From NCBI GenBank assembly GCA_046485285.1, contig JAWOHE010000022.1, forward strand, positions 1-37,151: 37,151 nt of DNA. The letters are read 5' to 3'. The position numbers and the translations under genes are program-made. The DNA is from a bacterium (lineage in GTDB: Bacteria > Hydrothermota > Tepidihabitantia > Tepidihabitantales > Tepidihabitantaceae). Every line of letters begins with the position of its first letter. Within the stretch, counting starts at the first letter, position 1. Under the pieces are notes generated by a model. That model was not told where the DNA came from. It saw nothing but the letters and a program-made list of their open reading frames with translations, and searched no databases. This document shows, one piece after another, positions 10,106 to 23,385 of the stretch.

Positions 10106-10197
10106 CCCGGCGCTGCGCGCCGGGAGTCCGTTCCGGAATCCTGCCGGAGTTCTTCTTCTCTCCGCGCCGAAGGCGCGGCTTCCCGGCGGCCGGCGGG
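10106..10197 (+). repeat. Multi-hairpin dispersed repeat, copy 1 (intergenic, between divergent lptF and GNAT promoters)
   Basis: CCCGGCGC-TGC-GCGCCGGG-AGTCCGTTCCGGAATCCTGCCGGAGTTCTTCTTCTCT-CCGCGCC-GAA-GGCGCGG-CTTCCC; near-identical to 18496-18574 and to reverse complements at 17128 and 20771. Confidence 0.92.
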
Positions 10198-10198
10198 C

Positions 10199-10227
10199 TT
10201 GACAACGACTGTGCCACCGGCTAGCTT
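10199..10227 (+). promoter_or_regulatory. Leaderless promoter of GNAT gene
   Basis: TTGACA-N17-TAGCTT, 5 nt before GTG at 10233. Confidence 0.5.
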
Positions 10228-10232
10228 TTGCC

Positions 10233-11354
10233 GTGGCGATCGAAGTTCGAGCCCTGTCCGGCCGGGCCGACCGGCGCCGCTTCATCTTCCTGCCGGCCCG
10301 GGTTCACCAGGGCCACGCGAACTGGATCCCGCCGATCTACCTGGACGAACAGCGGTACTTCGACCCGCGCCGCAACCACTCCTTCCGGGACTCCGACACC
10401 GTGCTCGCGCTGGCCTGGCGCGACCGAAGGCCGGTCGGCCGGGTCATGGGCATCGTCCAGCGCCGGTACAACGAGCAAACCGGCCGGCACGACGCCCGGT
10501 TCGCGTATCTCGAGACCGAAGAAGACCGCGAGGTCGTGCTCGCCCTGCTCGAATTCGTCGAGCACTGGGCGCGAGGCCGCGGGATGGACCGCGTCGTCGG
10601 GCCGCTCGGTTTCTCGGACCAGGAACCGGAGGGGTTCATGGTCGACGGGTTTGACGAGGAACCAGTACTGGCAAGCTACCAGAACCTGCCCTGGATGGTG
10701 GAGTATCTCGAGTCCGCCGGCTACACCAAGGAGCTCGACTACGTCCACTACCTGGTCCCGATTCCCGCCGAGCCACCGCCGCTCTACGTCAAGGTTTCCC
10801 AGCGGCTCCTGCGCCAGCAGGAGTACCGCCTGCTTGAATTCGCCTCGACGAAGCAGCTCAAGCCCTGGATCTACAAGGTCTTCGAGCTGATGAACGCGAC
10901 CTACCGGCACATCTACGGCTATACCAAGCTCCTCCGCGAGGACATGGACGCGCTCGCCGCCCAGTACCTGCCCGTGCTCGACCCGAGGTTCGTAAAGATT
11001 GTGACGAACTCGAACGGCGAGCTGGTCGCGTTCGTCATCGGCATGCCGAACATGAACGAGGGCCTGCGCCGGTGCCGGGGTCACGTCCTGCCCTTCGGCA
11101 TCTTCCACATCAAGGCGGCGATGAAGCGGACGAAGCAGCTCGACCTCTACCTCGGCGCGATCCGCGAGGACTGCCGGGGCAAGGGACTCGACGTGCTGAT
11201 GGGCACCGCGATGCTGCGGAGCGCGCGGGCCGCCGGGCTCGAGCGGATCGACAGCCACCACGAGATGGAGACCAACCTCAAGGTTCGCGCCGAGATGGAG
11301 CGGGCCGGCGGCAGGATCTTCAAGCGCTTCCGGATCTACCAGAAACCGCTCTAG
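10233..11354 (+). CDS. GNAT-like N-acyltransferase (YghO-like family)
   Basis: WIPPI, VGRVMG, RVVGPLGFSDQEPEG, NLPWM, RGKGLD, ETN, KRFRIYQKPL pattern of this ~370 aa family. Confidence 0.7.
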   Translation: MAIEVRALSGRADRRRFIFLPARVHQGHANWIPPIYLDEQRYFDPRRNHSFRDSDTVLALAWRDRRPVGRVMGIVQRRYNEQTGRHDARFAYLETEEDREVVLALLEFVEHWARGRGMDRVVGPLGFSDQEPEGFMVDGFDEEPVLASYQNLPWMVEYLESAGYTKELDYVHYLVPIPAEPPPLYVKVSQRLLRQQEYRLLEFASTKQLKPWIYKVFELMNATYRHIYGYTKLLREDMDALAAQYLPVLDPRFVKIVTNSNGELVAFVIGMPNMNEGLRRCRGHVLPFGIFHIKAAMKRTKQLDLYLGAIREDCRGKGLDVLMGTAMLRSARAAGLERIDSHHEMETNLKVRAEMERAGGRIFKRFRIYQKPL

Positions 11355-20153: not shown

Positions 20154-21593
20154 ATGGGCTTCACGCCACACACGCCCGCAGACCGGCAGCGGATGGTCGA
20201 GCGCATTGGCGTCAAGAGCATCGACGAGCTGTTTTCGTCGATCCCGCCCGGGCTCCGGCTCGGACGCCCGCTTGACCTGCCCGCGCCGCTCTCGGAATAC
20301 GAGGCAATCGCCGCGCTCCGGGAGCGGGCAGCGCTGAACCGGGGTATCGAAAGCGTTGTCTGCTTCGCCGGTGCCGGCGCCTATGACCACACCAGCCCGG
20401 CAGTTGTCGATGCGATCATCTCGCGCTCCGAATTCCTCACCGCCTACACGCCCTACCAGGCCGAGGTGTCGCAGGGCACGCTGGAGAGCATCTACGAGTT
20501 CCAGAGCCTTGTCTGCCGCCTGACCGCGATGGACGTTGCCAACGCATCGATGTACGACGCGGGCTCGGCCGTCGCCGAGGCGGCCCAAATGGCACAGAAC
20601 ATCACCCGCCGGGACCGCATCCTGGTCGCCGAGTCGGTGCACCCCGCGCACGTCGAGGTGATCCGGACCTACGCCCGCGGGCTCGGCATACCGGTCGAGA
20701 CGGTCGGCCTGCGTGACGGCGTCACCGACCTTGAGAAGCTCCGTTCGGCGGCGGGCGGCCCGGGCCGCCCGGCAGCCGCGCCTTCGGCGCGGAGAGAAGA
20801 AGAACTCCGGCAGGATTCTGGAACGGACTCCCGGCGCGCAGCGCCGGGGATCGCGGCGGTCGTGGTACAGCATCCGAACTTCTTCGGCAGTATCGAGCCG
20901 ATGCCGGGGATTGCCGAGCTCGCCCGCGCGGCCGGGGCGCTGCTCATTGCCGTCGTTGACCCGGTGTCGCTGGGCGTGCTCGCCCCGCCCGGCGCCTATG
21001 GCGCCGACATCGCGGTCGCCGAGGGCCAGGCCTTCGGGCTTCCGCTGAGCTACGGCGGGCCGTACCTCGGGATGCTTGCGACCCGGCTGCAGTACGTCCG
21101 GCAACTGCCCGGCAGGCTGGTTGGCCGAACGACCGACGTCGAGGGCCGGACCGGCTACGTCCTCGCCCTCCAGACCCGCGAACAGCACATTCGCCGGGAG
21201 CGCGCCTCATCGAACATCTGCACGAACCAGGCGTTGATGGCCCTGGCCGCAAGCGTCTGTATGGCCTGGTTCGGACGCGAAGGGCTCGCCGAACTTGGCC
21301 GGCAGTGTCTGTCGCGCGCGCGCCACCTGGCCGGCCTGATCTCGGGGATCCCGGGCTTCAAGATTGAGAACAGCCACCCGTTCTTCAAGGAGTTCACCGT
21401 CGCGACGCCGGTCCCGGCCCGGGAGGTCATCGCCCGCGGTCTCGATCGGGGCATCCTCGCCGGCGTCGACCTCGGCCGGTTCCGCCCTGAATGGAACAAC
21501 CGCCTGCTGGTCGCGGTGACCGAAAATCGCAGCCGGGAACAGCTCGACAGCTATGCCCGGTTCCTGCGCGAGGAGTTTGGAGCCAGGCAATGA
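20154..21593 (+). CDS. gcvPA: Glycine dehydrogenase subunit 1 carrying a ~32 aa repeat-derived insertion
   Basis: [62 protein letters not shown]. Confidence 0.96.
20753..20848 (-). repeat. Multi-hairpin repeat, copy 5 (in frame inside gcvPA)
   Basis: GGGCGGCCCGGGCCGCCCGGCAGCCGCGCCTTCGGCGCGGAGAGAAGAAGAACTCCGGCAGGATTCTGGAACGGACTCCCGGCGCGCAGCGCCGGG (96 nt), encoding [32 protein letters not shown]; strand given relative to copy 1. Confidence 0.92.
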
Positions 21594-21784
21594 ACTGCAA
21601 CCAGCCGGCCAACGCCGCCGAGTGCACCTGTAGCTACCCGGGCTGCAGCCGCAAGGGGCGCTGCTGCGAGTGTATCGCCTACCATCGCCGCAACGGTGAG
21701 GTCCCGGGCTGTCTCTTCCCGCCCGAGGTCGAGAAGACCTACGACCGGTCAGCCGCCCGCTTCGCGGCCTGCTTCAAGCGATGA
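21590..21784 (+). CDS. Small Cys-rich protein (DUF6485-like)
   Basis: 64 aa [21 protein letters not shown]...PGCLF...[11 protein letters not shown]-coupled to both gcvPA and gcvPB. Confidence 0.75.
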
Positions 21785-23292
21785 AACCGCCCAGGAGCCT
21801 GTTCGAGCTTTCCCGCCCGGGTCGAGGGTCGTGGACCCTGCCCCGGCTGGACGTTCCGCCGGTCGAGCCTGAAGACGCCTTCGGCAGCCAGGCGCGCGCC
21901 GACAGCGACATGCCCGAGCTCAGCGAGGTTGACATCGCAAGGCACTACATCGGCCTCTCGGTTCTCAACCATCACGTCGACCGCGGATTCTACCCTCTCG
22001 GGTCCTGCACGATGAAGTACAACCCGAAGGTCAACGAGCGGGCGGCGCGTCTGTCCGGTTTCGCCGATCTCCATCCGCTCGCGCCGGACGAGGCCTGCCA
22101 GGGCGCGCTGAGACTGATGTACGAACTCGGCGGGTACCTCAAGGAAATCACCGGGATGGACGCAGTCACGCTCCAGCCGGCGGCCGGCGCCCACGGCGAG
22201 CTCTGCGGTATGATGATGATCCGCCAGTATCTCGAGAAACGGGGCGAGGCCGGCCGGGTCGAGGTGCTCGTCCCCGACTCAGCCCATGGGACCAATCCGG
22301 CCTCGGTGACCCTGTCAGGGTTCCGGGCGGTAGAGATTAAGTCCAACGAACGGGGAGAACTCGACCCGGCCGAGCTCGAACGCCGGTGTACCGACTGCGT
22401 CGCATGCCTGATGGTCACCAACCCGAACACGCTGGGCATCTTCGAATCCCGGGCAAGGGAGATCTGCGACATAATGCACCGCAAGGGCGCCCTCGTCTAC
22501 CTCGACGGCGCCAACCTCAATTCCTACCTCGGCATCCACCGGCCGGGCGACGCCGGGTTTGACGTGATGCACATCAACCTGCACAAAACCTTCTCGACGC
22601 CACACGGTGGCGGGGGGCCGGGCGCCGGACCGGTGGTCGCGAAGTCGCACCTCGAGCCGTTCCTGCCTCGCCCGGTCGTGAAGAAGAACGGCGATGGCTA
22701 CTCGCTCGACGGCGATCGCCCGGACTCGATCGGCCGGCTGCTGTCGTCGAACGGGCAGTTCGGGGTGATGGTGCGCGCCTGGACCTACATCCGGATGCTG
22801 GGCGCGGCCGGCCTCCGCCAGGTCGCCGAGGACGCGGTACTCAACGCCAACTACGTTCGCGCCGGACTCGAGGGCGTCTACGACCTGCCCTATCCCGGTC
22901 GCTCTCTGCACGAGGTCGTCTTCTCGGGCGCGAACCTGAAGCGCTACGGCATCAGGACGCTCGACGTGGCGAAGCGCCTGCTGGACTTCGGGCTTCACGC
23001 GCCGACTATCTACTTCCCGCTGATTGTTCCCGAGGCGCTGATGATCGAGCCGACCGAGACCGAATCGCTCGAGGCACTCGACGAGTTCGTCGCGGTGATG
23101 AAGCTGATTGCCGAGGAGGCTGCCAGCGACCCGGATGTCCTGCGCCAGGCGCCGACCCGTACCCCGGTTCGCCGGCTTGACGACGCCAAGGCCTCGCGCC
23201 AGCTCAACGTCAGCTATCGCCCGGCGGCCGGCGGCCCCGAGTCCAGCGACCGGGGACCGGGGACCGGGGACGGGTCTGGGGAGGACCGGTGA
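21781..23292 (+). CDS. gcvPB: Glycine dehydrogenase subunit 2
   Basis: [53 protein letters not shown] (PLP Lys), MIEPTETES. Confidence 0.97.
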
Positions 23293-23352
23293 CCGGCGAC
23301 GGGAGACGGGTGAGCCTCAGCCGGCCGGTCTTCGGTCTTCTGTCTCCGGTCC
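23248..23352. repeat. Heptamer-periodic (GAC-NNNN / GTC-NNNN) imperfect inverted tandem array
   Basis: GACCGGG GACCGGG GACCGGG GAC...GACCGGT GACCGGC GACGGGA GACGGGT then GTCTTCG GTCTTCT GTCTCCG GTC; overlaps the gcvPB 3' end. Confidence 0.6.
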
Positions 23353-23385
23353 ATTCCGATACCGACTCCCGGCGCGTGCTGCGCC
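23353..23385 (-). repeat. Partial sixth copy of the multi-hairpin repeat
   Basis: ATTCCGATACCGACTCCCGGCGCGTGCTGCGCC vs copy 2 coding strand ATTCCGGAACCGACTCCCGGCGCGTTGCGCC. Confidence 0.6.

Follow-up and report, generated by a model that had tools for sequence, protein, structure and literature searches.

How did one short palindromic repeat come to lie both between genes and, in frame, within conserved protein-coding genes of the same bacterium? The question is raised by contig JAWOHE010000022.1 of assembly GCA_046485285.1, a 37,151-nt stretch that was analyzed whole (the window). It is contig C61 of the genome under study (G000), a metagenome-assembled genome (MAG) of 2.34 Mb in 102 contigs, 69% GC and 88% complete; four genomes of the same genus (G001-G004, the congeners) were available for comparison. 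The original prediction, made from the letters of the window, listed five copies of the repeat and a fragment at 23353-23385, and all of these are real. The five copies were recovered by a repeat search and by direct reading of the sequence; they lie on both strands within 11 kb and are mutually 61-95% alike in ungapped comparison. The fragment, on the minus strand, was recovered by a mismatch search in which 20 of 23 bases agreed, and it corresponds to positions 3-33 of the nhmmer model (E = 0.065). Our preferred reading, to which we give a probability of about 0.8, is that the copies belong to a lineage-restricted family of ~95-100-nt non-autonomous mobile repeats. It is judged to be a new family of an already known class, comparable to the Rickettsia palindromic elements (RPE), the betaproteobacterial repeat element (BRE), and REPIN/MITE-like repeats (MITE, miniature inverted-repeat transposable element). 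The reading draws on copy number, anatomy, in-frame insertions, restriction to G000 and one congener, the orientation bias of genic copies, and clustering; mobility itself is suggested by the distribution of the copies together with insertion-free alleles.

Anatomy and copy number of the repeat

A genome-wide count had been proposed as a first check. The nhmmer profile built from the five window copies gave 36 matches in the genome and 37 after iteration, on 21 of the 102 contigs, and a covariance model built from 32 copies gave 36. Two extra 3' halves were found at C76:3484-3531 and C96:12825-12851. The element is ~95-100 nt long and contains four GC hairpins in the order that had been described. 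H1 is CCCGGCGC-N3-GCGCCGGG in the aligned copies; H2, a weaker hairpin around TTCCGGAATCC (the TTCCGG hairpin), is followed by a (TTC)n or TCC-rich tract; H3 is CCGCGCC-GAA-GGCGCGG; and H4 is usually CCCGGCGGCC-N2-5-GGCCGCCGGG, a GC hairpin with a variable loop. Subfamilies can be recognized, one with an additional base 5' of H3 and another with a longer H1.

The hairpins are conserved as hairpins. Across 41 aligned copies (36 from G000 and five from a congener), 87.4% of 1004 cells were paired, as against 40-44% when the partners were slid; compensatory changes occurred in 11 of 25 pairs, and none of 500 shuffles reached the observed covariation score. Because the alignment was fitted to a model containing two of the three helices, and because the copies are related, these figures support conservation of the palindromes and do not prove selection on structure. 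Single copies gave no unusually stable RNA folding (z-scores of -0.6 to -1.9). Comparison of the left end with the reverse complement of the right end gave a score of 12, the shuffled mean being 6.8, and only 0.2% of 1000 shuffles reached it; the element is thus bounded by inverted repeats that are themselves palindromic, terminal inverted repeats being a mark of MITEs.

Reading frames through the repeat are more often open than expected: a mean of 5.1 of six frames is open in the copies versus 4.1 in random 82-mers of the genome, and all six are open in 13 of 37 copies versus 8.4% of random 82-mers. The predicted absence of stop codons from all six frames thus holds for those 13 copies and fails for the remainder.

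Insertions in conserved genes

Genic placement was determined by codon-usage frame analysis and Pfam, and insertion-free orthologues were taken from G001-G004. For nine genic copies, insertion-free alleles were found in the same-genus genomes, and each net length is a multiple of three (Table 1). The reading frame is continuous across the copy, as expected from the prediction that intact genes had been entered, and the assignment of three window copies to intergenic DNA and two to open reading frames (ORFs) was correct. The lengths previously given for the two coding copies, 96 and 99 nt, need correction, the net insertions being 87 and 93 nt against the insertion-free alleles. The genic copies are located in loops or tails.

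Table 1. Copies of the repeat in the window and verified genic insertions in G000; net insertions are relative to same-genus orthologues
Copy or gene	Position in window	Strand	Setting	Net insertion	Congeners compared
Copy c1	10106-10197	+	Intergenic; between divergent LptF/LptG permease gene (8832-10070, -) and GNAT-type gene (10233-11354, +)		
Copy c2	11787-11885	+	In frame, inside Ddl-like ATP-grasp gene (11351-12430, -); antisense reading; Pfam Dala_Dala_lig_C	+93 nt	Empty in 2/2 having the gene (G003, G004)
Copy c3	17124-17207	-	Intergenic; between class-III aminotransferase gene (17209-18399, -) and TMEM260-like gene (15386-17086, -)		
Copy c4	18496-18590	+	Intergenic; between aminotransferase start (18399, -) and gcvT (ATG at 18633, +)		
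Copy c5	20753-20849	-	In frame, inside gcvPA (20154-21593, +); antisense reading; Pfam GDC-P spans site	+87 nt	Empty in 4/4
Degenerate partial copy	23353..23405	-	H1-proximal part, long-H1 variant; spacer past gcvPB (stop at 23292)		
Fpg				+111 and +114 nt	2 alignable of 3
Class I/II aminotransferase				+90 nt	Empty in 3/3
PolyA_pol-type nucleotidyltransferase				+93 nt in 2/3, +99 nt in third	3
M23 peptidase				+90 nt	Empty in 2/2
WD40-like protein				+84 nt	Empty in 2/2
Molybdopterin oxidoreductase			Variable linker	+24 to +27 nt	3/3
PPDK			C-terminal tail	+102 nt	Empty in 2/2

The insertion in GcvPA (c5) amounts to 29 residues net. The window protein has 479 residues, versus 411-464 in the 119 other proteins listed by a homologue search, and the 29-residue segment was absent from all 37 homologues that were aligned, these having been chosen across the listing. 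Named homologues at ~53-64% identity come from candidate division WOR-3, to which the host itself probably belongs on this basis. In an AlphaFold2 model of GcvPA (mean predicted local distance difference test score, pLDDT, 82.4), residues 201-232 have block means of 51-60 and lie between a helix and a strand that both exceed 90; the predicted low-confidence segment fits a tolerated surface insertion. A 36-residue peptide encoded by the element had no match, at E up to 0.001, among 1.84 billion representative proteins, a search limited by the short query and by the fact that insert-carrying proteins may be represented by insert-free relatives.

Frame analysis alone places other copies over the predicted 3' ends of MiaA, M23 peptidase, YgiQ-type radical SAM, and LPG-synthase-like genes. 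The M23 peptidase gene carries two copies, at G000 C53:23115-23197 and 23733-23815, of which the internal one is that verified at +90 nt; the second supplies the predicted C terminus, and homology to the congeners ends 27 nt earlier. Note also that the Ddl-like gene carrying c2 is adjacent to the GNAT-type gene and to a lysine-2,3-aminomutase-like radical SAM gene (window 10233-13828). This gene group resembles a pathway for a beta-lysine-derived metabolite.

The orientation of the genic copies is not random. At all nine verified copies the host gene runs antisense to the H1-to-H4 direction, for which the two-sided binomial probability is ~0.004; between them, the copies use at least three frames. 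Stop codons were rejected as the cause, as open frames are similarly common on both strands (2.49 of three in the sense and 2.62 of three in the antisense direction); a bias in replication direction was also rejected, as the five window copies alternate strand within 11 kb. In the antisense reading, the TTC tract yields polar peptides rich in Glu and Arg, whereas the sense reading is rich in Phe, Ser and Arg. A sequence scan also flagged the hairpin and T-rich tract of the sense strand as terminator-like. Either the composition of the peptide or the terminator-like character of the sense strand may underlie the bias.

Spread of the repeat and its possible agents

Using the covariance model, five diverged copies were detected in one of the four congeners, G002. 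The other 39 relatives (the three remaining congeners and 36 further genomes) gave no match to the family, nor did 150 genomes from 77 genera of the phylum; these searches of relatives and phylum used the stricter filters of Infernal, and not all of the genomes are complete. The comparable G000 insertion sites are empty in G002, and those insertions thus postdate the split. No real match came from wider searches. Among 185,579 GTDB species genomes, an exact-pattern scan returned nine single matches in unrelated phyla, none of them Rickettsia and each covered by the profile only in part; a metagenome scan returned a single partial match of 22 bits; and viral contigs, plasmids and phages had no matches. 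Rfam gave no match at the gathering score over the whole window, and the best sub-threshold score (13.8 bits, E = 0.58) is at chance level. The earlier suppositions that the element is lineage-specific and matches no described family thus held within the genomes and collections searched. A full-text literature search that included 'WOR-3' found papers in which the term was absent, but this was a weak search and does not imply unpublished status.

Within G000, copies lie close to one another. There are 15 neighboring pairs within 10 kb versus 4.2 expected, a number reached by none of 5000 random placements; the copies occupy 21 contigs versus 29 expected; and 25 copies are accompanied by another copy on their contig, the closest relative of six of these being on that contig (permutation P = 0.007).

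A scheme that would accommodate these properties is as follows. An enzyme encoded elsewhere, or unassembled in the MAG, would copy and insert the element, and fresh copies would land preferentially near existing ones, often at CCGG-rich sites. Selection probably filtered the genic copies: the others would have been removed, and those persisting are the copies immediately beside -35 boxes or gene ends and those lying in frame and antisense within genes. The antisense TTC tract would then give Glu/Arg/Ser/Asp-rich, probably disordered peptides of ~28-37 residues, which are maybe better tolerated. The outcome is new lineage-specific surface segments in conserved enzymes, namely in GcvPA, the ATP-grasp ligase, Fpg, the class I/II aminotransferase and the PolyA_pol-type nucleotidyltransferase, and further in the M23 peptidase, the molybdopterin oxidoreductase, PPDK and the WD40-like protein.

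Several observations weigh against this scheme or narrow it. No candidate for the mobilizing enzyme bears the ends of the repeat. On contig C44, G000 encodes a single Y1 (HUH) transposase, and Y1 matches occur in all four congeners; the G000 gene is flanked by a 26-nt inverted repeat unrelated to the element, and no match to the element model with E < 0.07 occurs at any of the eight Y1 loci of the five genomes. DDE_Tnp_1 and TnpB-type domains had no matches in the genome, and the ends of an IS3-like (rve) element are unrelated to those of the repeat. Nor was a present/absent polymorphism, which would mark recent movement, seen within one population, and one sequencing run, containing 7% of the sampled words, yielded no contigs but short ones that fail to span 20742-20843. 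Consistent target-site duplications were not readable at the compared insertion sites. A CCGG-type junction sequence, which also matches the element ends, is present at five of the nine empty alleles (a count without statistical control), and because the junctions are GC-rich and CCGG is also in the element ends, a 4-nt duplication, microhomology and chance are inseparable. The hairpin-to-hairpin length of 95-102 nt exceeds the net insertion at several sites, and the element boundaries are thus uncertain. Of the five diverged copies of G002, three fall within long coding frames, and one of these three is in the sense orientation; this result is from frame analysis only. Finally, the MAG is 88% complete and in 102 contigs, and the assembly therefore affects both the number of copies counted and the test for clustering. 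The three apparently genic copies of G002 are at loci L040, L044 and L046 (~1501-1610 of each) and have coding-like codon usage on both sides.

The search for a mobilizer covered five transposase-related families, and within these and the 88% of the genome assembled, no full-length parent insertion sequence (IS) with the ends of the element was found. In the window, for which no transposase had been predicted, none was present among the 20 ORFs, a subset of the total, that were scanned with Pfam. Larger repeats were also considered as parents: there are 645 self-BLAST matches of at least 200 nt, and the families examined, which are a minority, proved to be FG-GAP paralogues or non-coding 12-nt periodic arrays and included no transposases.

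Some of these other repeats deserve description in their own right. The 12-nt periodic arrays form ~1-kb blocks without long ORFs, of GTAGGGGGAACG and CCGGGGGCCGCC types; an example is G000 C101:65778-66503 (L146 1778-2503), and the blocks occur on about ten contigs at 86-90% identity, often near contig ends. The rve-type (IS3-like) transposase is multi-copy and truncated by contig ends (C10:2-280, C76:13427-13705 and C92:23552-23755); its conserved end, ...GGGGGCAGTCCA, has no relation to the palindromic element. The Y1 region (G000 C44:28765-29507; L077 8765-9507) comprises two overlapping ORFs of 177 and 114 amino acids that share a near-identical segment, LLAAVRYVERNPVRARLAKRAWD, a pattern that points to a frameshift, to a duplication within the region or to misassembly. 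A ~30-nt motif around GTCCCCGGAAT is present in the window at 35320-35350 and 36651-36687; in inverted pairs the same motif flanks the Y1 gene (G000 C44:28704-28729 and 29524-29549), and a looser search found it additionally on C42, C52 and C74. Near the window copies of this motif, a weak HEPN-domain ORF (19.3 bits, cut-off 22) stands beside an ORF with a MarR-type helix-turn-helix and a nucleotidyltransferase (window 35415-36504, minus strand); the two look like a HEPN/MNT toxin-antitoxin-like pair, and they are bracketed by direct repeats at 34957-35023/36693-36759 and 35360-35396/36529-36565. Further to the right, window positions 36765-37098 contain three tandem 111-nt units, each with a GTAG-tagged palindrome (CTGTAGGAGCG ... 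CGCTCCTACA). The GTAG-tagged 24-nt core has 18 matches in the genome at up to three mismatches, those of the tandem units included, on at least 12 contigs.

Could the repeat have multiplied with no transposase devoted to it? Template switching promoted by the hairpins while DNA is replicated or repaired, and guided by microhomology between the CCCGGCG/CGCCGGG ends and CCGG-rich targets, would account for the failure to find a partner enzyme and for the want of a clear target duplication. It would also account for terminal hairpins that partly overlap the target, for truncated copies, and for the clustering of close relatives; survival of genic copies in one orientation would then reflect the strand that encodes a tolerable peptide. 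We regard this route as an unlikely one, though worth stating.

About equally unlikely is that the element is a REPIN, i.e., two inverted repetitive extragenic palindromes (REP) around a spacer, copied by the single Y1 (HUH) transposase of the genome, of the REP-associated tyrosine transposase (RAYT) type, acting on single-stranded hairpins. The ends are indeed similar palindromes in inverted orientation, the size fits, a clear target duplication is not seen, and the Y1 gene is present. The Y1 loci described above nevertheless argue against it: a copy adjacent to a RAYT-type gene, which the original prediction had suggested looking for, is not near any of the eight, the repeat bordering the G000 gene is a different one, and three congeners have Y1 genes without any copy of the element. 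The consensus also has no tag, GTAG, CTAC, CGTC and GACG all being absent. The GTAG-tagged palindromes form a second, classical REP/REPIN-like family, which is a likelier partner of the Y1/RAYT protein than is the element under study. In addition, at least nine of the 37 copies are genic, whereas REPINs are extragenic in the excerpted account of PMC3116915.

The intergenic copies raise a different alternative, in which the element is chiefly a host regulatory module that was spread by recombination and not transposition, with the genic copies as by-products; a promoter-proximal protein-binding or insulator site, a terminator-like element and a small RNA are its possible roles. A promoter scan found six sigma-70-like sites in window positions 9900-23600 versus 0.7 in shuffled sequence, and four of these lie directly against copies c1, c3 and c4, which supports the promoter association proposed earlier for these three copies. 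The H1 side of c1 is abutted by TTGACG-16-TATCAT on the minus strand (10104-10077), and its H4 side is followed by TTGACA. Copy c3 begins 4 nt past the stop codon of the class-III aminotransferase gene, with the TMEM260-like gene downstream, and its H4 position is taken by TTGACG-16-TATTCT (17120-17093, minus strand). Copy c4 is bracketed by promoter-like sites at 18481-18454 (minus strand) and 18596-18623 (plus strand). The genes flanking c3 and c4 sit on separate contigs in the congeners. Genome-wide, TTGAC occurs at the H4 exit of six of 37 copies versus 1.6 expected. The conserved hairpins, and the terminator-like H2 hairpin and TTC tract of three window copies in the sense orientation, are also what a regulatory module might show. 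Nine copies, however, interrupt conserved coding sequence in frame, where a promoter or terminator role is not expected; the intergenic copies lie in either orientation relative to neighboring genes; Rfam has no match; and three of the four congeners are without the element, so there is no conserved regulon. A chiefly regulatory origin is thus improbable, and somewhat more so than the two preceding alternatives. We read the intergenic copies instead as mobile repeats that inserted, or survived, at the ends of genes and immediately 5' of -35 boxes, where they may also contribute to regulation.

An origin of the genic copies in faulty assembly or binning, as repeat-induced chimeras in a short-read MAG, is very improbable: the MAG is in 102 contigs and no bridging reads or independent contigs were obtained for a copy, but every genic copy has its own sequence variants and lies in a different gene, the same orthologue continues in frame on both flanks, all nine net lengths are multiples of three, repeats usually break contigs and do not enter ORFs cleanly, and the independent G002 assembly also has copies in long ORFs by frame analysis.

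Kinship with known repeats and significance

The comparison with RPE made in the original prediction was apt with respect to behavior, namely a palindromic repeat in frame in genes whose orthologues are insertion-free; because that behavior is RPE-like, the class of repeat was already known. RPE are described in excerpts of PMC10969869 as ~100-150-nt palindromic repeats, many of them in frame in Rickettsia genes. Both kinds of element, RPE being taken as portrayed in the same excerpts (which cite Ogata et al. 2000 and 2002), are palindromic, lack their own coding capacity and number in the tens of copies, and a large fraction lies in frame in unrelated housekeeping genes, the inserts being compatible with the fold of the host protein. 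The two were compared by description only, and they differ in host, which here is free-living, high-GC (69%) and uncultured and is not a Rickettsia. The present element also has four GC hairpins, palindromic inverted ends, a single genic orientation (9/9) and local clustering.

Other small repeats share some of these traits. In the part of PMC3184786 available to us, BRE, ERIC and RUP are repeats fused to or inside genes, BRE in about nine of them; like the present family, BRE, intragenic ERIC and RUP are internal to protein genes or extend their 3' or 5' ends. They belong to other host clades, whereas the present family, again compared by description, occurs in two species of one genus among those searched. 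REPINs, in the excerpted text of PMC3116915, are palindromic units inverted around a spacer, non-autonomous and extragenic. The present element likewise has two inverted palindromic units around a spacer, but on the three points tested it lacks the tag, the cognate RAYT and the extragenic distribution. QMITE1 of Coxiella, as portrayed in extracts of PMC5896051, is 300-400 bp long, has 2-3-nt direct repeats and itself carries promoters. Those extracts also present it as small and non-autonomous, overlapping ORFs and accompanied by promoters of the sigma-70 type, traits that the present element shares. The present element differs in being ~100 nt long, in having no readable direct repeats, and in that the promoter-like hexamers lie just outside it.

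Two testable clues to the mechanism of transposition are the strict bias in orientation and the clustering of copies, and the nine dated insertions amount to a natural experiment on which loop positions and peptide compositions are tolerated by enzymes, including GcvPA, Fpg and PPDK. At a practical level, repeats of this kind can pass for novel domains, and they inflate or split the gene calls of MAGs. To our knowledge, the best-documented examples of housekeeping proteins colonized in frame by selfish palindromic DNA come from Rickettsia and a few proteobacteria. The family described here is a clean, independent case; its lineage is free-living, high in GC and uncultured, and sister species provide the insertion-free alleles. 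It suggests that in-frame insertion of repeats generally serves as a route by which proteins gain lineage-specific segments, and is not a peculiarity of reduced intracellular genomes.

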